Source: Gammaproteobacteria bacterium (GTDB lineage: Bacteria; Pseudomonadota; Gammaproteobacteria; S144-34). From it: 64,000 nucleotides of DNA. Of the stretch, positions 1,985 through 45,960 are shown piece after piece. The notes beneath the pieces are model-generated. The model had not been told where the DNA came from. It did not search any database and saw only the letters and a list, made by a program, of their open reading frames with translations. Within the stretch, counting starts at the first letter, position 1. Each line of letters begins with the position of its first letter. Both the position numbers and the translations under genes were made by a program. Location of the stretch: positions 17,239 to 81,238 of the forward strand of contig JALSJE010000021.1 in the NCBI GenBank assembly GCA_026989495.1. The letters run 5' to 3'.

Positions 1985-3955
1985 TCAGGCGCCCTGGGCG
2001 GGGCCGGTGCCGCGGGCGCTGCCTGCGGCGAGCTCGGCCGGCCCCGGGTAGCCGAGGAGCTTGCGGATGCGGGCGAGCTCGGCGAGCTGGCGCTCGAGCC
2101 CGGCGCACTGGCGCTCGAGCTCGGCAATGCGCGCCTCCACGGTCTCGCGCGACTCGCTGATCCGGCGCAGGCTCTCGAGGCGCTTCTCCATGAGGCGCTT
2201 GCGCTCCTTGATCTGGCGCGCGAGCGGGCCCAGCACCCCCTTGAGCCAGTCCTCGGTCTCCTGGTTGGCGCGGAAGAAGACGTTGCGCGCCTGGCTGACC
2301 AGGGAGATGAAGAACTTGCGGATGACGAAGCTCTGCTCGGTCATGGTGGTGACGGGGCTGCGGCGGAAGGCCTCGGCCTCCTCGTGCAGGCGCCGCAGCT
2401 CCTGGGCATAGGCGCCCATGTCGAGCAGGCGCGGCGTGAGCGGCGGCAGGCCGTGCTCGCGGTGGAACTTGCGGAAGACGGCCTCGACCAGGCTGCGCGT
2501 CTCGGCCGCGCGCGCCTCGGCCTCGCCCATGGCCTCGAGCAGGCCGTCGAAGAGGGCCTTCATGGCGCGCTTCAGCCCGGGCGTGGTCCAGCTCTTGGCC
2601 ATCTCCACGCGCGCGGTGTGGATGCGCCTGTCGATGCGGTCGAGGCTGAGGGCGGCGAGCAGGTCGCGGGCCTGCTTGGCGAGCAGCCGCTTGCTGGACT
2701 GGTAGCTCTGCAGGTGGCGCAGGTAGGTGGCCTGCTCGGCGCGGGCCTTGCGCAGCAGGTCCTCGAGCACGGCGACGTTCTTGCCGCTGAGGCTGCGCAG
2801 CTCGTTGAGCTGGGCGCGCGCCTGCTCGAGCCTGCCCCCCACCACGCTGCGGGCGTTGTCGATCTGGTCGCCGACGCCGCGGTGCACTGCCTCTTGCAGG
2901 ATGACGCGCTTGCGCGCGAGCACCACCTCGGCGAAGTGGCGCTCCAGCGCACGCAGGCGGCTGCGGGCGAGCAGCGGCTCGTCGCCGCGCACCTTCGCCA
3001 CCAGGCCCTTCTGGGCCGAGACCGGGAACACCTGCGCCGGATCCACGCCCAGGATCCCGGCCACCTCCCGGCGCTGGCGCTCGATGGCGGCCTCGATCTC
3101 ATCGCGCCCGCTGAGCTCGTCCCAAAGGGTGTCGATCTTGTTGAGCACCACGACGACGCCCTGCTCGCCCCGACGGGCGAGGCGGGCCACGTGCTCGTTC
3201 CACATCTCCAGGTCGGAGCGGGTCACGCCCGTGTCGGCCCCCACCACGAACAGCACCGCCTGCGCGGCGGGCAGCGCGTTCAGCGTGAGCTCCGGCTCGG
3301 CGCCGATGGCGTTGAGGCCGGGCGTGTCCAGGATGGCGAGCCCCCGGCGCAGCAGGGGATGGGGGAAGCTGATGAGCGCGTGGCGCCACTTGGGGATCTC
3401 CACCTCCGCCTCCGCGGCGGCATCCTCGGGCGTGAGCCCCAGCGCACGCGCCTGCGCCGCCGGCACGCGCTTGGTGCGCACCACCTCCGCCAGGGTCTCG
3501 GCCATGGCGTCCGGATCGGCGGGGTCGAGGTAGAGGGTGACCCAATGGATGGGATCGCGCTTGTACTCGGAGACCGGGATGTCGGTGCGGCGCGTCTCGA
3601 TGGGCAGCAGCCGCACGTAGGGCCGCTCCACCTCGGGGTCATGGAAGATCTCGGTCGGGCACATGGTGGTGCGGCCCGCCTGCGAGGGCAGCAGCCGCCG
3701 GCCGTGCCCGGAGAAGAAGATGGCGTTGATGAGCTCGGTCTTGCCGCGGGAGAACTCGGCCACGAAGGCCACGGTCAGGCGGTCGTGGCGCAGGGCCTCG
3801 AGCGTCTCGTACAGGCGCAGGTCGTCCTCGGCCGTGGCCTCGCCGAAGTCTTCCAGCCAGGCCTGGAAGGCCTGCAGCCCCTCGAGCAGGGACGCGCGCG
3901 AGGCCGCGTAGGCCTCGAGCTCGCGCTCCAGCGCCGGATCCTCCCGTCCCGCCAT
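1985..3955 (-). CDS. dynamin-family large GTPase (bacterial dynamin-like protein)
   Basis: 656 aa. P-loop is FSRGKTELINAI, with LDTPGLNA (G3) and VLNKID (G4) motifs, followed by a long coiled-coil C-terminal half. This is the domain order of BDLP/LeoA/IniA-type proteins. Confidence 0.75.
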   Translation of the reverse strand: MAGREDPALERELEAYAASRASLLEGLQAFQAWLEDFGEATAEDDLRLYETLEALRHDRLTVAFVAEFSRGKTELINAIFFSGHGRRLLPSQAGRTTMCPTEIFHDPEVERPYVRLLPIETRRTDIPVSEYKRDPIHWVTLYLDPADPDAMAETLAEVVRTKRVPAAQARALGLTPEDAAAEAEVEIPKWRHALISFPHPLLRRGLAILDTPGLNAIGAEPELTLNALPAAQAVLFVVGADTGVTRSDLEMWNEHVARLARRGEQGVVVVLNKIDTLWDELSGRDEIEAAIERQRREVAGILGVDPAQVFPVSAQKGLVAKVRGDEPLLARSRLRALERHFAEVVLARKRVILQEAVHRGVGDQIDNARSVVGGRLEQARAQLNELRSLSGKNVAVLEDLLRKARAEQATYLRHLQSYQSSKRLLAKQARDLLAALSLDRIDRRIHTARVEMAKSWTTPGLKRAMKALFDGLLEAMGEAEARAAETRSLVEAVFRKFHREHGLPPLTPRLLDMGAYAQELRRLHEEAEAFRRSPVTTMTEQSFVIRKFFISLVSQARNVFFRANQETEDWLKGVLGPLARQIKERKRLMEKRLESLRRISESRETVEARIAELERQCAGLERQLAELARIRKLLGYPGPAELAAGSARGTGPAQGA

Positions 3956-7681: not shown

Positions 7682-8809
7682 ATGGCCATCGACATGAACG
7701 CGCTCCTCAAGCTGATGGTCCACAAGAAGGCCTCGGACCTCTTCATCACGGCCGGCATGCCGCCCAGCCTGAAGATCCATGGGCGCATCCAGCCTGTCGC
7801 GGAGACGGCGCTCACGCCCGACCAGGCGCGCGAGACGGTGCTGAGCGTCATGAACGAGCGCCAGCGGCGCGAGTTCGAGGAGACCAAGGAGTGCAACTTC
7901 GCCATCAGCGCCTCGGGCGTGGGGCGCTTCCGCGTGAGCGCCTTCGTGCAGCGCAACTACGCAGGGATGGTGCTCAGGCGCATCGAGACCCGCATCCCCA
8001 CCATCGAGGAGCTGCACCTGCCGCCGGTCCTGAAGAACCTGGCCATGACCAAGCGCGGGCTGGTGATCTTCGTCGGCGCCACCGGCACCGGCAAGTCCAC
8101 CTCGCTCGCGGCCATGATCGGCTACCGCAACCAGAACAGCAACGGCCACATCGTCACCATCGAGGACCCGATCGAGTTCGTCCATCAGCACGCCGGCTGC
8201 ATCGTCACCCAGCGCGAGGTGGGCATCGACACCGAGTCCTACGAGGTGGCGCTCAGGAACACCCTGCGCCAGGCCCCGGACGTGATCCTCATCGGCGAGA
8301 TCCGCTCGCGCGAGACCATGGACTACGCCATCCAGTTCGCCGAGACGGGGCACCTCTGCCTGTCGACGCTGCACGCCAACAACGCCAACCAGGCCCTCGA
8401 CCGCATCATCAACTTCTTCCCCGAGGACCGGCGCGACCAGCTCCTCATGGACCTCTCGCTCAACCTCAAGGCCATCGTGGCCCAGCAGCTCATACCCACG
8501 CCCGACGGCAAGGGCCGGCGCGTGGCGGTCGAGGTGCTCATCAACACGCCGCTCGCCGCCGACATGATCCGCAAGGGCGAGATCCACAAGCTCAAGGAGC
8601 TCATGAAGCGCTCGACGCAGCAGGGCATGAAGACCTTCGACCAGGCGCTGTTCGAGCTCTACCAGGCGGGCGAGATCACCTACGAGGACGCTCTCCACCA
8701 CGCCGACTCGGCCAACGAGGTGCGCCTCATGATCAAGCTGGGCAAGCGCGATCCCGAGAGCCTGGCGCAGGCGGCCGAGGGGCTGAGCCTGGTGGATCCC
8801 GACCGCTGA
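7682..8809 (+). CDS. pilU: type IV pilus ATPase PilU
   Basis: 375 aa with GATGTGKST. PilT paralog placed immediately downstream of pilT, as in Pseudomonas. Confidence 0.9.
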   Translation: MAIDMNALLKLMVHKKASDLFITAGMPPSLKIHGRIQPVAETALTPDQARETVLSVMNERQRREFEETKECNFAISASGVGRFRVSAFVQRNYAGMVLRRIETRIPTIEELHLPPVLKNLAMTKRGLVIFVGATGTGKSTSLAAMIGYRNQNSNGHIVTIEDPIEFVHQHAGCIVTQREVGIDTESYEVALRNTLRQAPDVILIGEIRSRETMDYAIQFAETGHLCLSTLHANNANQALDRIINFFPEDRRDQLLMDLSLNLKAIVAQQLIPTPDGKGRRVAVEVLINTPLAADMIRKGEIHKLKELMKRSTQQGMKTFDQALFELYQAGEITYEDALHHADSANEVRLMIKLGKRDPESLAQAAEGLSLVDPDR

Positions 8810-8861
8810 GGCCTCGGGCCGCGTGGAGGCCCCGCCCCCGGTCGGGATGCTCCGGGGCCCC

Positions 8862-9726
8862 TCACCAGACGACCTCGGCGGCGTCGAAGACCGGCCCGTC
8901 CACGCATACGCGGCGCATGGCAAGCCCCTGCGGGGTGCGCACGGGCACCGTGCAGCCGGCGCAGCCGCCCACCCCGCAGGCCATGTGCTCCTCCAGCGCC
9001 ACCTGGCAGGGCAGCCCCTGCTCGGCCGCAAGACGCGCCACCGCCGCCAGCATGGGGTGCGGCCCGCAGGCGTAGAGCTGCACCCCGCGCCGCGCGATCC
9101 CGGGCAGGGTCTCGAGCCAGGCGCGGGCGAGCTCGGTGACGAGCCCGCGGTGGCAGCCCGGGTGGCCGCGCCCGCTCGCGAGCCGTGCCGGCACGCCGGC
9201 CCGCTCGAGACGGGCCAGGCTGCGCTCCGCCTCGGCCGGGACGCCCGGGACCGGCAGCCGCGCGGGGACGAGCTCGAACGGGAAGGGGGCCTCCGAGCCC
9301 AGGAGGGCCACCGGCCGCCACGGCTCGCCCGCCGCCGCGAGCCGCTCGGCGAGGAAGATCACGGGGGGCATGCCCACGCCGCCGCCCAGGAGCAGCGCCC
9401 GGGGACGCGCCGGGTCGGGACGGAAGGGCCGGCCGATGGGCCCGAGCAGGCTGAGGCGCTCACCGGGGCGGCGGGCGGCGAGCCGCGCCGTGCCCAGCCC
9501 CACCACCTTGTAGAGCAGCTCCACGGTGCCCGCGGCCGGGTCGGCGCCCATGAGGGAGAGCGGCCTGCGCATGGGGAGCATCGGGTCGCAGCGCAGGTGC
9601 ACGAACTGCCCGGGCTCGGCGCGGGCGGCGCAGCGCGGCGCGCGCAGCACCAGCACGCGCTGGCCCTCCGGCCAGGCCTCGTGGCGCAGGACCTCGGCCT
9701 CCTCCAGTGCGATCGTACCGGTCACG
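8862..9726 (-). CDS. PyrK-like FAD/NAD(P)-binding oxidoreductase with C-terminal 2Fe-2S cysteine motif
   Basis: About 288 aa. RPLSL (FAD site), LLGGGVGMPP (NAD site) and a C-terminal CGVGGCAGC...C motif as in the dihydroorotate dehydrogenase electron-transfer subunit. Probable GTG start overlapping the pyrC' stop (GTGA). Confidence 0.6.
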
Positions 9727-11014: not shown

Positions 11015-11991
11015 GCCGGCGTGCCCTCCCCGCCGCGGGCGGTCCGCATGGTCATGGAGATGATGGCCATGCGCACCGCGATGCCGTGCTCGACCTGCTC
11101 CAGGATCACCGAGCGCGGCCCGTCGGCCACGCGCGACTCGAGCTCCACCCCGCGGTTGATGGGGCCGGGGTGCATGACGATGGCGTCGGGGCGGGCCCGC
11201 GCCAGCCGCTCCTCGGTGAGGCCGTAGAGGCGGAAGTACTCGTGCTCGCTCGGCAGATGCGCGCCGCGCATGCGCTCCTTCTGCAGGCGCAGCATGATGA
11301 CGACGTCGGCGTCGCGCAGCCCGTCCTCCATGCGGTGGAAGACGTGCACGCCCAGGTCCTCCACGTGCGCCGGCAGCAGCGTGCGCGGGGCCACCACCCG
11401 CACCTCGCCCGTGCCCAGGGCGTTGAGGGCGTGGATCTGCGAGCGCGCCACGCGCGAGTGCAGGATGTCGCCCACGATGGCCACCACCAGGTCCTCGAAA
11501 CGGCCCTTGCGGCGGCGGATGGTGAAGACGTCGAGCAGGGCCTGGGTGGGATGTGCGTGGCGGCCGTCGCCGGCGTTGACCACGCTCACGTGCGGCTGCA
11601 CATGGCGGGCGATGAAGTGGGCCGCGCCGCTGTCGGCGTGGCGCACCACGAACATGTCCACGTGCATGGCCTCGAGGTTGCGCAGGGTATCCAGCAGGGT
11701 TTCGCCCTTGGTCGTGGCCGAGGCGGAGACGTTGATGTTGAGCACGTCGGCCGAGAGGCGCTTGGCCGCGAGCTCGAAGGTGGTGCGCGTGCGCGTGCTG
11801 GCCTCGAAGAACAGGTTGACGACGGTCTTGCCGCGCAGCAGCGGGACCTTCTTCACCGTCTGCTCGGCGACGCCGGCGAAGGACTCGGCCGCATCGAGTA
11901 TCTCTGTGAGCAGGCCGCGCTCCAGGCCCTCGACGGTCAGGAAGTGGCGCAGCCGCCCCTGCTCGTCCACCTGCAGCCGCGCGCCGCTCAT
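11011..11991 (-). CDS. pyrB: aspartate carbamoyltransferase catalytic subunit
   Basis: Start at [13 protein letters not shown] and HPTQ signature motifs are present. Overlaps the pyrR stop (ATGA). Confidence 0.9.
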
Positions 11992-15119: not shown

Positions 15120-15497
15120 TCAGAAGTTGATGGCGTCATAGGCGCCGCCGGGACCGGTGAGGGTGACCACCACCCCGTTCGGCAGGCAGGCCGCGAGCGC
15201 GCCGGCCTCGCGCACCCAGCCGGCGCGCACGCACACCTTCGCCCGGCAGGGCGAGTCCACGAAACGGACCGCCCCGCCGCGCACCTCCAGCACGCTCTCG
15301 CCAAGCGCCCCGCGCACCCGGTAGGTGCCGGGCCGGTCGAGGGGGAGGTAGCGCGTCCCGAAGGGCGTCTCCACGCGGGCGGTCACCACCGGACCCGCCC
15401 CGGCCTGGCGCCAGGCGAGCACGTGCAGCCCCGCGAGCAGGACCGCCGCGAGGGCGAACACGACCAGGTCCGCGGGCGTCGGAAGCGGACGGCTCAC
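15120..15497 (-). CDS. NusG domain II-containing protein (DUF1312-like)
   Basis: About 125 aa tail of ORF 15120..16532, with an N-terminal TM segment followed by a beta-rich domain. The start (GTG overlapping the apbE stop) is uncertain. Confidence 0.45.
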   Translation of the reverse strand: MSRPLPTPADLVVFALAAVLLAGLHVLAWRQAGAGPVVTARVETPFGTRYLPLDRPGTYRVRGALGESVLEVRGGAVRFVDSPCRAKVCVRAGWVREAGALAACLPNGVVVTLTGPGGAYDAINF

Positions 15498-16588
15498 GGC
15501 GCGCCTCCCCCTGCGGGCGCCGCGGCCGTGCCCTCCGGAACGGCGGGCAGCGGCACGGTCTCCAGGGGCGGGGCGGGGCGCGCCACGATGCGCAGCCGCC
15601 GCGCGAGTGCCGGCGTGGCCTGGAGCCGGCCTGCCTCGTCCACCACCAGCACCTGGGTGAGCCCCAGCCGGGCCGCCACCGCCGGCCACTCGCGGGGGCC
15701 GGCCACGAACAGCGCAGTGGCGGCCGCGTCCGCCTCGCTGCCGTCGTCGTGGACCACCGTGACCGAGACGAGCCCGCGCGCGGGCCGGCCCGTGCGCGGG
15801 TCGAGGATGTGATGATAGCGCCGGCCCTGCCAGGTGAAGTAGCGCTCGTAGTCCCCGGAGGTGAAGACCGCCTCGCCGTCGGCCACCTCGAGGGCGGCCA
15901 GGATGCCGTTGCCGCGCGGGGCGCGGATGCCGATGCGCCAGGGGCGGTCCCCGTGGCGCCCGAGGACGCGCAGGTCGCCGCCGGCGTTGACCAGGGCGCT
16001 GGTCACGCCCAGGCGGCGCAGGCGCTCGACGGCCCGGTCCACGGCGAGCCCCTTGGCGAAGGCGCCGAAGTCGAGCTGCACCTCCGGGTTGCGCGAGCGC
16101 ACCCGGATGCCGCGCACCTCCAGGTCGAGGATGCTGGGCCGGGCGGCGAGCAGGGCGGCGATGCGCGCCGCGTCCGGAGGCGGGCGCTCGCCACCGGGAT
16201 CGTCGCCGTGGAAGCCCCACAGGGCGATGAGCTTTCCGATCCCCGGATCGAAAAGACCGCCCGAGGCCTCGGCGAGCGCGCGCGCCTCGACGATGAGGGG
16301 CAGCACCGAGGGCGCGGCCGAGAACCAGTGGCCCGTGGCGAGCAGCGTGTTGACCCGTCCGAGCGCCCCGGGGCGCCAGGCGTGCCAGGTGCGCTCCATA
16401 TAGGTGAAGTCGGCCTCCAGCGCGCGGTGGGCGCGCTCGGCGAGCCCCGCGGGCGCGCCGTGGAGGGTGAGCTCCACCACCGTGCCCATGGCGAGGAAGC
16501 TGTAGCGATGCTCGGGCGCCTCGCGCGCGCACCCGGCCGCGAGCAGCGCGGCCGCGAGCAGCGCGGCGGCGCGGACACGGGGCCTCAT
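15494..16588 (-). CDS. apbE: FAD:protein FMN transferase ApbE (lipoprotein)
   Basis: From MRPRVRAAALLAAALLAAGC (lipobox). Matches the ApbE family along its length (FLAMGT...DPSGIGKG...GGD). Its start overlaps the gshB stop. Confidence 0.85.
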   Translation of the reverse strand: MRPRVRAAALLAAALLAAGCAREAPEHRYSFLAMGTVVELTLHGAPAGLAERAHRALEADFTYMERTWHAWRPGALGRVNTLLATGHWFSAAPSVLPLIVEARALAEASGGLFDPGIGKLIALWGFHGDDPGGERPPPDAARIAALLAARPSILDLEVRGIRVRSRNPEVQLDFGAFAKGLAVDRAVERLRRLGVTSALVNAGGDLRVLGRHGDRPWRIGIRAPRGNGILAALEVADGEAVFTSGDYERYFTWQGRRYHHILDPRTGRPARGLVSVTVVHDDGSEADAAATALFVAGPREWPAVAARLGLTQVLVVDEAGRLQATPALARRLRIVARPAPPLETVPLPAVPEGTAAAPAGGGAP

Positions 16589-17826
16589 GGCCGCCCGCCT
16601 CCTGCCGTCCTGCGCCGGTCCCGTGCCGCGAGCCGCCGCGCGATGGCGTCCATGAGGTCGCCGGCGATGTCGAGCCCGTAGAGCGCGTCGAGCTCGCGGA
16701 TGCAGGTGGGGCTGGTGACGTTGATCTCGGTCAGCCAGCCCCCGATCACGTCCAGCCCGACGAAAAGCAGCCCGCGCTCGCGGAGCGCCGGGCCGAGGCG
16801 GGCGCAGATCTCGCGCTCGCGCCGATCCAGCGGCACCCCCTCGCCGCGGCCGCCGGCGGCGAGGTTGCCCCGCAGCTCGCCCGCGCGCGGGATGCGGGCG
16901 AGCGCGTAGGGCACGGGCTCGCCATCCACCAGGAGGATGCGGTGGTCGCCCCCGGTGCGGATCTCCGGGACGAAGCGCTGGGCCATGCACCAGCGCCGGC
17001 CGTGCGCCGTCATGGTCTCGAGGATCACGGGGCGGTTGGGGTCGTCGCGGCGCAGGTAGAAGACGGACTCGCCGCCCATGCTTCCGAGGGGCTTGAGCAC
17101 GATCTCGCCGTGCGCCTCGAGGAAGGCCTCGATGCGTGCCGGCTCGCGCGCCACCACGAAGGGCGGGGCGAGGTCGGCGAACCAGGCCAGCCAGAGCTTC
17201 TCGTCCACCTCGCGCAGCGCCCGCGGGGCGTTGACCACCAAGGTCCCCGCCGCCTCGGCGCGCTCCAGGATCCAGGTCGCGCGCAGGTATTCGAGGTCCA
17301 CGGGCGGATCCTTGCGCATGAGGATCACGTCGAGCGTGTGCAGCGGGGCCTCCTCCGGCTCGCCCAGCTCGTACCAGCCCGCCGGGTCGTCGCGCACCGC
17401 GAGCGGGCGCATGCGGGCCCAGGCCTCGGCGCCCGCCGTGCCGGAGCCGGATGCCCAGGTCGCGGGATCTGGGCCGGTGCCGGAGGCGGGCCGCCCCGCC
17501 TGCGGGCGCTGCGGCGCTCCCCGCGACTGCGCGCTGCGCGCGCCCGTGTCCGCGCCGCCGCCTCGTCGTCGCCTTTCCGCATCCCCGGCTGCCTGATACC
17601 GTTCCGCCTCCCCGCGCTCTGGGACTCGGCGGCCGTGCGGCGCTCCCCGCGACTGCGCGCTGCGCGCGCCCGTGTCCGCGCCGCCCGCCAGCCACAGGTC
17701 GCCGAGCTCCATGTAGCGCAGGCTCCAGCCGCGCGCCTGCGCGGCCAGCAGCATGGCGAAGGTGCTGTCCTTGGCGATGCGGATGTCCTCGATGGGGTCC
17801 ATCACGACCCCGAGCCGCACGCTCAC
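16585..17826 (-). CDS. gshB: glutathione synthetase (ATP-grasp) with a long in-frame N-domain insertion
   Basis: Aligns with E. coli GshB from VSVRLGVVMDPIEDI to the C-terminus. About 84 extra Gly/Ala/Arg-rich residues lie between GDLWL and AWARMRPLAV. GTG start overlaps the gshA stop. Confidence 0.85.
   Translation of the reverse strand: MSVRLGVVMDPIEDIRIAKDSTFAMLLAAQARGWSLRYMELGDLWLAGGADTGARSAQSRGAPHGRRVPERGEAERYQAAGDAERRRRGGGADTGARSAQSRGAPQRPQAGRPASGTGPDPATWASGSGTAGAEAWARMRPLAVRDDPAGWYELGEPEEAPLHTLDVILMRKDPPVDLEYLRATWILERAEAAGTLVVNAPRALREVDEKLWLAWFADLAPPFVVAREPARIEAFLEAHGEIVLKPLGSMGGESVFYLRRDDPNRPVILETMTAHGRRWCMAQRFVPEIRTGGDHRILLVDGEPVPYALARIPRAGELRGNLAAGGRGEGVPLDRREREICARLGPALRERGLLFVGLDVIGGWLTEINVTSPTCIRELDALYGLDIAGDLMDAIARRLAARDRRRTAGGGRP
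17511..17685. repeat. Perfect 49-bp direct repeat (2 copies, 126-bp spacer) inside the gshB coding sequence
   Basis: gcggcgctccccgcgactgcgcgctgcgcgcgcccgtgtccgcgccgcc occurs at about 17511-17559 and again at about 17637-17685. The spacer between the copies is lower in GC. Confidence 0.6.
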
Positions 17827-19121
17827 GGCGCGGCCTCGCGCATCTCGCGCGCGGCGGCCACCAGCGCGAGCCGTGCCACCACGCCGTAGGCGTAGAAGCG
17901 GTTGGGGCCCGCGTCCGGGTCGCTGCGCGCATCCGGCGTGTTGCACGACCCCGTGAAGGCGAGCGGCTGGAAGTGCATGCCGGGGGCGTTGAGATTCTCG
18001 GTGGGGCCGCGGCCGGTGTGCACCCGGTAGAAGCCGCCCACCACATAGTGATCGATCATGTAGACCACGGGCTCGGCCACGGAGGAGCCGTCCTCCCAGG
18101 TTTCGAAGGTGTAGACCCCTTCCTGCAGCAGCACGCGCCGCACCGCGCGTCCGCCCTTGGTGGTGGCCATGCGCGTGCGCTGGCGCCGGCTCAGGCCGCG
18201 CACCTCCTCCGGGCTGCGCGCCACCATCACCGCCATGCCGTAGGTGCCGGCGTCGGCCTTGATCACCACGAAGGGCTCACGGTCTATGCCGTGCTCGTCG
18301 TACTTTGCGCGGATGGCCTCGAGGAGCCGGGCCACGTTGCGCTCCAGGCAGGCCTCGCCCTCGCGGCGCAGGAAGTCGATCTCGCCGCAGTTGCGATAGA
18401 GGGGCTCGATGAGCCAGGGGTCGATGTCGATGAGGGCTGCGAACTCTTCGGCCACGCGGTGGTAGTGCTCGAAGTGGCGGAACTTGGAGCGGTCCGCCCA
18501 GCCCAGGTGCAGGGGCGGGGCGACGGGCTGCTCGATGTCCTCCAGGATCGCCGGGCGCCCGCCGGCGAGGTCGTTGTTGAGCAGCACCATGCAAGGGTCG
18601 AATCCGGCCACGCCCACGCGCGCCCCGTGCCGCTCCAGGGGCTCGAGCACCACCTCGCGGCCCGAGGGCAGCTCGATGCGGCGCGGGCCCTCGAGATCCT
18701 CGATGAGCGAGCCGATGCGCACCTCGTAGCCCGCCTGCGCCACGATGCCGGCCAGCGTCGCGAGGCTCTCCAGGTAATAGGTGTTGCGGGTATGGCTCTC
18801 GGGCACGATCAGCACGCGGCTCGCCGTGGGGCAGAGCCGCTCGATGGCGGCCTGCATGGCCTGCACGCACAGCGGCAGGAAGGCCGGGTTGAGGTTGTTG
18901 AACCCGGCCGGAAAGAGGTTGGTGTCCACCGGCGCGAGCTTGAAGCCCGCGTTGCGCAGGTCCACCGACGCGTAGATGGGTGCGGGCGTGGCGAGCCACT
19001 GGCGGCGCAGCCAGGCCTCGATGGCGCTCTGGCGCTCGAGCAGGTGCGACTCCAGGGTCAGCAGCGGCCCCGTGAGCGCGGTGGTCAGGTGCGGTACGGT
19101 CTGCAGTGTCGGTGCGGCCAT
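17823..19121 (-). CDS. gshA: putative glutamate--cysteine ligase (rare Acidithiobacillus-type GshA family)
   Basis: 432 aa, translationally coupled to gshB. It is not the E. coli-type GshA; I recall the family from memory and did not run a search. Confidence 0.55.
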   Translation of the reverse strand: MAAPTLQTVPHLTTALTGPLLTLESHLLERQSAIEAWLRRQWLATPAPIYASVDLRNAGFKLAPVDTNLFPAGFNNLNPAFLPLCVQAMQAAIERLCPTASRVLIVPESHTRNTYYLESLATLAGIVAQAGYEVRIGSLIEDLEGPRRIELPSGREVVLEPLERHGARVGVAGFDPCMVLLNNDLAGGRPAILEDIEQPVAPPLHLGWADRSKFRHFEHYHRVAEEFAALIDIDPWLIEPLYRNCGEIDFLRREGEACLERNVARLLEAIRAKYDEHGIDREPFVVIKADAGTYGMAVMVARSPEEVRGLSRRQRTRMATTKGGRAVRRVLLQEGVYTFETWEDGSSVAEPVVYMIDHYVVGGFYRVHTGRGPTENLNAPGMHFQPLAFTGSCNTPDARSDPDAGPNRFYAYGVVARLALVAAAREMREAAP

Positions 19122-35669: not shown

Positions 35670-35830
35670 TGGAAACTCTGATCAATCCGCTGCGCGGATT
35701 GATCAGCGCGATAGTGCTTCGCGGTCCATTTCGATTTTTCACGTGTCGTCATGGACTTCCCTGTGCATGGGCCGTCCCGCGGCCGTCCGTGGCCGCGGGA
35801 AAGGTCTGAAAAATCGGATTTTCAGACCTT
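35670..35830 (-). repeat. structured intergenic repeat, copy A (4 hairpins), in the ahcY 5' leader / after metK
   Basis: ggaaactctgatcaatccgcTGCGCgcggattgatcag ... catgcacagggaagtccatg ... cccgcggccGTCCGTggccgcggg ... ggtctgaaaaatcggattttcagacc. Nearly identical to the copies at 38030 and 45789 (the latter inverted). Confidence 0.8.
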
Positions 35831-38029: not shown

Positions 38030-38176
38030 GGAAACTCTGATCATCCGCTGCGCGGACTGATCAGCGCGATGGCGCTTCGCGGTCCATTTCGATTTTTTCT
38101 TTTATCGTCATGCACTTCCCTGTGCATGGGTCCCCGGCCGCGGGAAAGGTCTGAAAAGATCGAATTTTTCAGACCT
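38030..38176 (-). repeat. structured intergenic repeat, copy B (one arm of hairpin 2 deleted)
   Basis: Same element as copy A, with changes in the hairpin loops while the stems are kept. About 30 nt upstream of the PhnD-like GTG start. Confidence 0.8.
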
Positions 38177-38595
38177 TTCTTCCATTACAAGGGATTACAT
38201 CGCGAGTCTAGGTGCGGGCGCACCCGCCCGCAAGGTGGGCGCGGGACCCGTCTGGAGGCAGCGGCAGCGTGCCGCCGACGAGCGGCCCCCAAGAGGGGCT
38301 TATGGGCGCATAGGGCGCGCACGGGGCAGGGGCGGCTGGTTGCACCTTGCCCCCCGCCGGATGCTCAGGGAAAATTGGCGTTTCATCGCACAGCGATGGG
38401 ATGCCTGTGCCGCGGCGCCGAGCGAGGCGCGCCGCGGGGCGCCGGAGCACACAGACAGCGACCATCCCTCTGCCCGGGGTGCGGCCCCGGCGACCCGGAC
38501 CGCCAGGCGGCGGAGGGGCAGGTGCGTTCCGCCACGCCGGGACACGGCGCCGGATTCGGCAAACCGAGGCATTCACGAGAACAGGGGAGGGGGCT

Positions 38596-45611: not shown

Positions 45612-45788
45612 GGCGCGCGTGCCATGGCCACCGGAGAGGGCGGGGCGACCCGCCCTTTCTCTTTGGGGAGAAGGCCAGCAGCAGGCAGCACGTGGCGAGG
45701 GAGGCGCGGCTTCCAGCCGCGCCCCGCCGGCGGGGCCGCTTTCCGCACGGCATCCGCAGACCCTGGCGCCCTGATTCTCATAAGGAAG

Positions 45789-45960
45789 CTCTGAAAAATC
45801 CGATTTTTCAGACCTTTCCCGCGGCCAGGGACGGCCGCGGGACGGCCCATGCACAGGGAAGTGCATGACGATACGACGAAAAATCGAAATGGAACGCGAA
45901 GCACCTCAGCGCTGATCAATCCGCGCAGCGGATTGATCAGAGTTTCCATCAGAGTTTCCA
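45789..45960 (+). repeat. structured intergenic repeat, copy C (inverted relative to A/B; 12-bp terminal duplication)
   Basis: gctctgaaaaatccgatttttcagacc - cccgcggccAGGGAcggccgcggg - catgcacAGGGAagtgcatg - ctgatcaatccgcGCAGCgcggattgatcag - agtttccat(cagagtttccat). Lies between fba and the aldolase-Dabb gene. Confidence 0.8.

Follow-up and report, generated by a model that had tools for sequence, protein, structure and literature searches.

Colonisation of enzyme genes by small repeats that insert in frame is textbook in Rickettsia, has been noted for repetitive extragenic palindromes (REPs), and is rarely documented in free-living bacteria of high GC content. The Rickettsia palindromic elements (RPEs; Ogata et al. 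2000, 2002), as summarised in PMC10969869 and PMC3733652, sit in frame within housekeeping genes. REPs, palindromic repeats tagged with GTAG or CGTC, have been described within genes as well, including uvrA of Thioalkalivibrio (Di Nocera et al. [quoted passage not shown] Here we analysed a 64,000-nt stretch of a metagenome-assembled gammaproteobacterial contig (GenBank JALSJE010000021.1; hereafter, the window), in which the glutathione synthase gene gshB carries an in-frame insert of 252 nt. The insert is made of two head-to-tail copies of a 126-nt (42-codon) dispersed repeat unit, and it probably represents a small, non-coding, GC-rich repeat that occupies a permissive site in the gene.

The gshB coding sequence (16585..17826, minus strand; 413 codons including the insert) was identified by its translation, Pfam, NCBIfam and a structural model. 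The full-length protein matches the NCBIfam glutathione synthase equivalog NF003573 above its curated cutoff (411 bits; cutoff 272) and has an intact ATP-grasp fold. Both Pfam domains (GSH-S_N and GSH-S_ATP) are present, with GSH-S_N interrupted between profile positions 46 and 47, and ortholog alignments, including one of 62 sequences, showed that the invariant residues of the family are all kept in the insert-bearing protein.

Alignments with insert-free orthologs delimit the insert to 17437..17688 (minus strand; 84 codons, residues 47-130), between GDLWL and GAEAWARMRPLAV, and its exact borders are ambiguous by 8 nt owing to a border repeat. The inserted peptide starts with AGGADTG and ends with GSGT, followed by AGAEAW. 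An initial annotation of the window had described an in-frame insertion of about 250 bp in gshB with a perfect 49-bp direct repeat, about 84 extra residues after GDLWL and a peptide occurring twice among them, all of which was borne out (the peptide is GGADTGARSAQSRGAP). It had also proposed a comparison with close relatives: the closest, at 82-85% identity, lack the insert and show a clean gap at its position, as does the 62-sequence alignment. GshB is 413 aa long here and 310-364 aa in the other 119 best matches listed, none of which, judged by length, has room for such an insert. Over ~18.7 kb the locus is collinear with that of a relative at ~83% nucleotide identity, and the insert is the sole break. 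The empty site in relatives reads CTGGAGGGCGCG or CTCGACGGCGCCGAG.

Exactly two copies of the 49-mer GCGGCGCTCCCCGCGACTGCGCGCTGCGCGCGCCCGTGTCCGCGCCGCC lie in the window, one spanning 17511-17559 and the other 17637-17685 (plus strand); no third match was found there at up to 3 mismatches, and none in 100 shuffles. Identity is perfect over 50 nt (17510-17559 and 17636-17685) and reaches 55 nt with 2 mismatches (starting at 17505 and 17631). The initial annotation had placed a 126-bp spacer of lower GC between the two copies. The lower GC was confirmed (0.73-0.75, versus 0.85-0.87 in the flanking 60-nt windows), but the spacer is 77 nt long, and 126 nt is the start-to-start distance. Nor are the 49-mers a target-site or terminal duplication, as had been suggested; they are instead the conserved cores of two tandem units, and the repeat at the insert borders is the 8-nt CGCCCGCC.

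The second unit in gene order, W1 (17431..17556, minus strand), is a canonical 126-nt copy that encodes GGADTGARSAQSRGAPQRPQAGRPASGTGPDPATWASGSGTA (nhmmer E = 7e-25), and the first, W2 (17557..17682, minus strand; also 126 nt), has the same core and an unrelated arm (E = 3e-17). In the plus orientation of the window the canonical unit begins with GCCCGCCGT. In gene sense, units open and close at a GGCGGGCGGC-like motif and run from a ~68-nt, nearly invariant core into a variable arm of ~50-74 nt. The W1 core (17489..17559), which holds the first 49-mer, is identical or nearly identical in the canonical copies, and the W2 core (17631..17685), with the second 49-mer, has 55 nt in common with it. 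W1 aligns without gaps to the copies at three other loci described below (L007, L008 and L009). Among these canonical copies, identity is 96-100% in the core (unit positions 59-126) and 51-69%, with no indels, in the arm (positions 10-58; 51-63% for W1 against the others), compared with 36 +/- 6% for shuffles.

The two units in gshB share a perfect core, whereas their positions 10-58 are 24% identical, which is the random level. The 74-nt arm of W2 (17557-17630), lower in GC, is likewise at random level against the other arms (20-37% identity). Searches of the window and all loci for its source with tblastn and blastn-short gave nothing above shuffle level, and its local alignments to the divergent tail of L007 and to the arm of the L010 copy were at shuffle level only. 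The W2 arm is coding-like on the plus strand only, antisense to gshB (GC by codon position.57/.65/.91; log-likelihood ratio +0.22 per codon; peptide ASSSPFRIPGCLIPFRLPALWDS), which suggests that it may be a captured fragment of some gene.

These comparisons bear on the suggestion of a slipped duplication, in which slipped-strand or tandem duplication would have copied gshB's own sequence. In its favour, the gene does hold a direct repeat of 126-nt period, but gshB and its orthologs match the insert nowhere, and no source was found elsewhere in the window. The units share the core only, their arms are at random-level identity (~24% over the 74 non-core nucleotides), and Tandem Repeats Finder gives no array of period 126. 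The unit is moreover present at unrelated loci, and these dispersed copies refute the explanation, whose probability we put at practically nil. An in-situ intragenic tandem repeat of variable number was rejected on the same grounds, namely the missing period-126 array, the missing local source and the unrelated loci.

To find further copies, an exact 26-mer of the core was scanned over a metagenome collection, and a degenerate pattern back-translated from the peptide was scanned over metagenome-assembled genomes (MAGs) of GTDB. The 26-mer matched two other contigs, both from one metagenome, and the degenerate pattern recovered diverged copies among species representatives, in two GTDB MAGs (S144_34 and S012_21). 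The family is thus known from five loci (the window, two metagenome contigs and two MAGs). All copies score between E = 1e-15 and 4e-25 with nhmmer, and nothing further was detected in the ~120 kb searched.

Two of the other loci carry single units in frame within unrelated genes. In L008 (Ga0256839), one unit in soeA, encoding a sulfite dehydrogenase subunit, adds 42 residues between EELPVGTAGG and RISNSDP. This SoeA is 1007 aa long, as against 955-982 aa in the 120 best orthologs listed, and the insert is clean and absent from close orthologs. In L009 (MAG S144_34, WGBS01), one unit lies near the C-terminus of a class-I glutamine amidotransferase gene; residues 1-197 and 244-275 of the product align with PDB 3m3p, and the insert forms the gap. 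The same MAG has an empty site in its own soeA, which is 92.9% identical in nucleotides to the L008 gene; a look for its gshB led to cluster members from other MAGs. Since this soeA is empty and that of L008 is filled, insertion sites differ between close relatives, a difference that reads as a signature of mobility in the sequences compared.

The remaining two loci are non-coding. L007 contains an intergenic array between convergent genes. It comprises a pair of identical units and a third whose tail diverges (126, 126 and 135 nt by the spacing of the boundary motif, 8060-8455), and it fills most of the gap from the stop of a dctP-like gene to that of a Phd/YefM antitoxin gene. In L010 (MAG S012_21) there is one diverged unit of 114 nt (2998-3121; boundary motifs at 3000-3114), 9 nt past a cobalamin riboswitch aptamer (2755-2989).

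Several features around these two loci were also recorded. The L010 aptamer belongs to Rfam RF00174 (66.8 bits), and the unit, upstream of the regulated gene (whose ATG is at 3213), falls within the leader or expression platform. In L007, a minus-strand ORF of 135 aa (8033-8440), without a Pfam match, reads the array in the frame used in gshB. Next to the array, 8467-9098 holds the Phd/YefM-type antitoxin gene and an overlapping upstream ORF; the latter probably encodes a PIN-type toxin, which would make the two a toxin-antitoxin pair.

The exact 26-mer core had no match in GTDB species representatives or in viral contigs, and blastn of the whole insert against a plasmid collection gave none either. 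At the protein level, a profile of four insert peptides against 5.8 billion proteins returned 3 word-sharing candidates, none of which scored, and an exhaustive phmmer search of the 84-aa insert against 1.84 billion representatives found 0 matches. With these searches empty, the insert peptide appears to be essentially private to this lineage. In the collection of papers searched, none had the core sequence or its peptide. The hosts are uncultured, Chromatiales-like, sulfur-oxidising Gammaproteobacteria, in which the family is apparently present at low copy number.

The borders of the inserts are alike at all loci. In gshB, CGCCCGCC (gene sense GGCGGGCG) stands at 17430..17437 on the gene-3' side and at 17682..17689 on the gene-5' side of the insert; GCCCGCC begins at 17431 and at 17683, i.e., 252 nt apart, and the preceding C was read directly. 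All inserts and arrays are bordered by direct repeats of this one motif (8 nt in gshB, 12 nt in soeA, 11 nt in the amidotransferase gene, 7-9 nt in L007 and L010), and the motif also forms the junction between tandem units. No terminal inverted repeats were found that would pair the ends of a single unit or of the 252-nt insert; the aligned unit ends (GCGGACACGG... and ...CCGGCAC) are not complementary. Whole units fold no better than shuffled sequences (z between -1.3 and +2.0). In the core, an imperfect hairpin of ~48 nt is possible (-17 to -20 kcal/mol; z ~-1.2, with 10-14% of shuffles folding equally well), in which one compensatory pair occurs among 4 sequences, in the diverged L010 copy. 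Rfam gave no match in the whole window at the gathering threshold and none on the insert at E<=10, a promoter and terminator scan had no matches, and no Pfam domain lies within the insert.

The initial annotation had thought of a small element inserted in frame, and in this it was right (the unit recurs at four other loci, at two of them in frame in unrelated genes), but the MITE anatomy that it proposed was not found. A conventional non-autonomous transposon, either a MITE or an insertion sequence (IS) derivative without inverted ends, could still be mobilised by a transposase encoded elsewhere, and the flanking GGCGGGCG repeats would then be true target-site duplications from staggered cleavage at a strongly preferred target. 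The family is indeed dispersed, its insertions are polymorphic between close relatives, and a direct repeat flanks every insert. We nevertheless regard a transposon as unlikely. Inverted repeats are missing from the unit ends, the 126-nt units have no significant hairpins of the IS200/IS605-end kind, and the syntenic regions of relatives showed no transposase. The border repeats measure 7, 8, 11 and 12 nt, while a given transposase normally makes a fixed length, and the motif also occurs between tandem units and so is part of the element. A transposase with a strong target preference is possible, and it fits the variable repeat lengths and missing inverted ends less well.

An assembly artefact, also raised at the outset, would mean that the assembler threaded a repeat from elsewhere into gshB or mis-resolved the number of units, the gene having in truth one unit or another second unit. 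The contig is metagenome-assembled, the insert in gshB is seen in one assembly only, the 50-55-nt perfect repeat could confuse short k-mers, and neither the rest of the window nor the loci gave another occurrence of the W2 arm. The gshB junctions, however, share just 8 nt with the element, far under any assembly k, and reads that truly span them would be required at both. With a length of exactly two units, the insert keeps the frame and lies at the target motif of its own family, and similar in-frame single units occur in assemblies independent of this one (Ga0256839 for soeA, WGBS01 for the amidotransferase gene). An artefact is thus very unlikely in our view.

Codon statistics set the insert apart from the genes around it. 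Genes of the window have GC contents of.68/.48/.96 at the three codon positions and score ~+0.68 per codon in the codon log-likelihood ratio, and in the frame of gshB the corresponding values are.76/.88/.90 and -0.28 for W1 and.88/.74/.74 and -0.72 for W2. These statistics are non-coding-like, so the insert did not originate as protein-coding DNA. The canonical unit is stop-free in all six frames, and gshB stays open because the unit has a length divisible by three, a high GC content and no stop in the frame read.

A model of GshB was built with AlphaFold from 62 homologs. The predicted local distance difference test (pLDDT) scores are 31-52 over residues ~48-131 and 88-98 for the rest of the enzyme. 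In the model the insert occupies a beta-hairpin turn of the N-domain, flanked by strands 44-47 and 134-144, and a Foldseek comparison with E. coli GshB (1gsa) gives a template modelling (TM) score of 0.96 and a root-mean-square deviation of 1.7 A. The insert is thus predicted to be a disordered surface loop of 84 residues, rich in Gly, Ala, Arg and Pro, on a normal enzyme core, which agrees with the earlier suggestion of a tolerated disordered loop, and gshB is most simply read from the model as functional with this loop.

Whether such a loop could have been selected was considered together with the codon data. A functional addition to GshB and the other enzymes, as a disordered interaction or regulatory loop or as an RNA or DNA signal in the operon, would be in keeping with the 96-100% identity of the 68-nt core beside a diverged arm, with the one compensatory base pair in the core hairpin, and with the single orientation and frame of all three genic copies (gshB, soeA and the amidotransferase gene). 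The target motif alone predicts the shared frame, however: of the 38 genic occurrences of GGCGGGCG in the window, 20 are in sense orientation and in Ala-Gly phase (frame 0), so that three of three has p ~0.15. We thus reject the shared orientation and frame as a sign of selection, since the codon-phase bias of the target motif accounts for them. The peptide varies widely between copies beyond its first 22 residues and is predicted to be disordered, its codon statistics are non-coding-like, and the core hairpin is no stabler than shuffled sequence. The family also occurs in non-coding DNA (L007 and L010), and close relatives function without the insert. Selection for such an addition seems to us highly improbable, and our preferred reading of the insert is selfish or neutral DNA that came to lie at a permissive position on the surface, rather than a domain under selection.

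Other known sources of such structures were rejected. Inteins have an N-terminal Cys, Ser or Thr, a C-terminal His-Asn followed by Cys, Ser or Thr, and a Hint fold; the insert (AGGADTG...GSGT, then AGAEAW) has no Pfam domain and is predicted to be disordered. A clustered regularly interspaced short palindromic repeat (CRISPR) array consists of at least three identical repeats at regular spacing, separated by unique spacers, and lies in non-coding DNA, usually near cas genes. Here only two repeats are present, inside a gene, the 'spacers' of L007 are identical to one another, and those of different loci are homologous (51-69% identity), not unique. An origin of the arm like that of a diversity-generating retroelement was rejected because inspection of the alignment showed arm differences at all four bases, not at adenines alone.

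As for how the units came to lie in gshB, the element would have integrated at a pre-existing GGCGGGCG (Ala-Gly codons) in the beta-hairpin turn of the N-domain. The target already held the motif, since the empty site of relatives reads as given above. The insertion of whole units, the variable borders that match the junction between units, the motif-bearing target and the lack of inverted ends lead us to infer integration driven by short homology between the unit-boundary motif and the same motif in the target, an explanation that we offer tentatively, as plausible though not quite probable. Two routes could be imagined. In one, a template switch would lead into a tandem donor array and, after one or two units, out of it again; in the other, an excised circle of unit length would recombine site-specifically at the motif. 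Both would yield whole units bordered by a motif repeat of variable length, and arrays could then expand by unequal exchange between identical cores.

Several observations weigh against the reading of the insert as a small neutral repeat. The insertion in gshB is seen in a single assembly (a 91,382-bp contig; NCBI, ENA and JGI), the family sample is limited to the five loci recovered, and we infer, like the neutrality of the insert, that GshB is made and active. Simple neutral decay does not explain the contrast between a core at 96-100% and an arm at 51-69% identity, and functional constraint or gene conversion may act on the core. Every unit length is divisible by three, those of non-coding copies (114 and 135 nt) among them; n is small, and the occurrence of such lengths even outside genes hints at something beyond chance.

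A bolder reading of the 126-nt unit, for which we see a small chance, is a new class of mobile module without inverted ends. The invariant core of ~68 nt would then be a recombination or recognition site whose perfect conservation reflects its role in mobility, and the arm of ~50-74 nt would be freely replaceable, with its length held so that the whole unit is a multiple of three. Homing to GCG-GGC-GGC (Ala-Gly-Gly) codons would bring the module into ORFs in phase, mobilised by some recombinase or by copy-choice from tandem donor arrays, and the W2 arm, with its coding-like antisense frame, would be captured cargo.

The insert-bearing gene stands in a gene cluster with gshA and an apbE-like gene. 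Upstream, gshA (glutamate-cysteine ligase; 17823..19121, minus strand) was called as an ORF in the same operon, and the genes of syntenic relatives carry the Pfam GshA domain; downstream is the ORF of the apbE-like gene (15494..16588, minus strand). The GTG start of gshB overlaps the gshA stop (GTGA, 17823-17826), and its TGA stop overlaps the apbE ATG (ATGA, 16585-16588). These overlaps suggest that gshA-gshB-apbE is a translationally coupled operon. The operon diverges from a pilG/pilH-type chemosensory cluster, and the same arrangement is found in relatives.

The first codons of the apbE-like gene (16563-16581, minus strand), ~1 kb from the insert, bear a perfect inverted match of 18-19 nt to the W1/W2 junction (17543-17561). 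By chance, 0.01 such matches per window are expected, and the sequence of relatives differs there. The last gshB codons, just upstream of this match, also bear the GGCGGGCGGC motif. The match could be a gene-conversion patch, a footprint or a coincidence. The signal-peptide part of the apbE-like gene further contains a 15-nt tandem repeat (CGGCCGCGAGCAGCG; 2.5 copies, 95% match, 16534-16571), and the segment reads AALLAAALLAA.

A second, unrelated dispersed repeat of ~160 nt is present in the window at 35671-35830 (plus), 38030-38177 (plus) and 45784-45947 (minus) and in L007 at 11162-11324. Its copies are 80-91% identical, lower in GC, and have three long near-perfect hairpins; the predicted RNA fold reaches -84 kcal/mol (z = -6.9), with a U-rich stretch after the last hairpin. 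This is a classic structured MITE/REP-like element or a terminator module, unlike the unstructured 126-nt unit.

Compared with the RPEs, as summarised in the papers cited above, the 126-nt unit is alike in its size class (~100-150 bp), in having no coding capacity of its own, and in occurring in frame in unrelated housekeeping genes, where 40-50 residues are added at positions compatible with the fold; both are also found in non-coding DNA. The unit is set apart from RPEs by its structure and its host, a free-living, high-GC gammaproteobacterium. It is not palindromic (by the folding z-scores above), it has a core and an arm and forms tandem units, and a 7-12-nt motif is repeated at its borders. 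A handful of copies were seen, whereas dozens are described for RPEs.

Intragenic REPs are likewise GC-rich short repeats in genes of Gammaproteobacteria, single or dimeric, which add tens of residues thought to be tolerated rather than functional. REPs are stem-loops of 20-40 nt that carry a GTAG or CGTC tag, mostly form head-to-head dimers and number in the tens to thousands; they are mainly extragenic and go with a RAYT gene in the genome. The 126-nt units, by contrast, lie head-to-tail, and their sole hairpin is weak (the core hairpin above). Direct reading found neither tag in the conserved core, and CGTC only in the W2 arm. With MITEs the unit shares a non-autonomous, dispersed nature, a short flanking direct repeat and the extension or interruption of ORFs in frame, and its size (within 50-500 bp), non-coding nature and several dispersed copies are those of a MITE. 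It differs from them in lacking terminal inverted repeats and a target-site duplication of fixed length. The mycobacterial interspersed repetitive units (MIRUs) are dispersed minisatellites of tens to ~100 nt, arranged head-to-tail in variable copy number at several loci, often in operons. MIRUs are known as intergenic repeats, whereas the 126-nt family inserts in conserved enzyme genes, and arms within one of its arrays can be unrelated.

The 126-nt family thus reaches the same outcome as these systems without palindromes or inverted ends, placing whole 42-codon units in surface loops of GshB, SoeA and a glutamine amidotransferase. It offers a natural experiment on the tolerance of proteins to inserted loops and on the spread of repeats that lack transposon-like structure, and its invariant core beside a diverged arm poses a concrete, testable question, namely what maintains the core. 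In the annotation of MAGs, inserts of this kind make proteins longer and can be wrongly taken for misassemblies or for novel domains. By behaviour, the closest analogues are the RPEs and the intragenic REPs, and, judged by tag, fold and host, the 126-nt unit is a member of neither. What is new, and previously undescribed, is a small repeat that inserts in frame and has a core-plus-arm, tandem and non-palindromic architecture.

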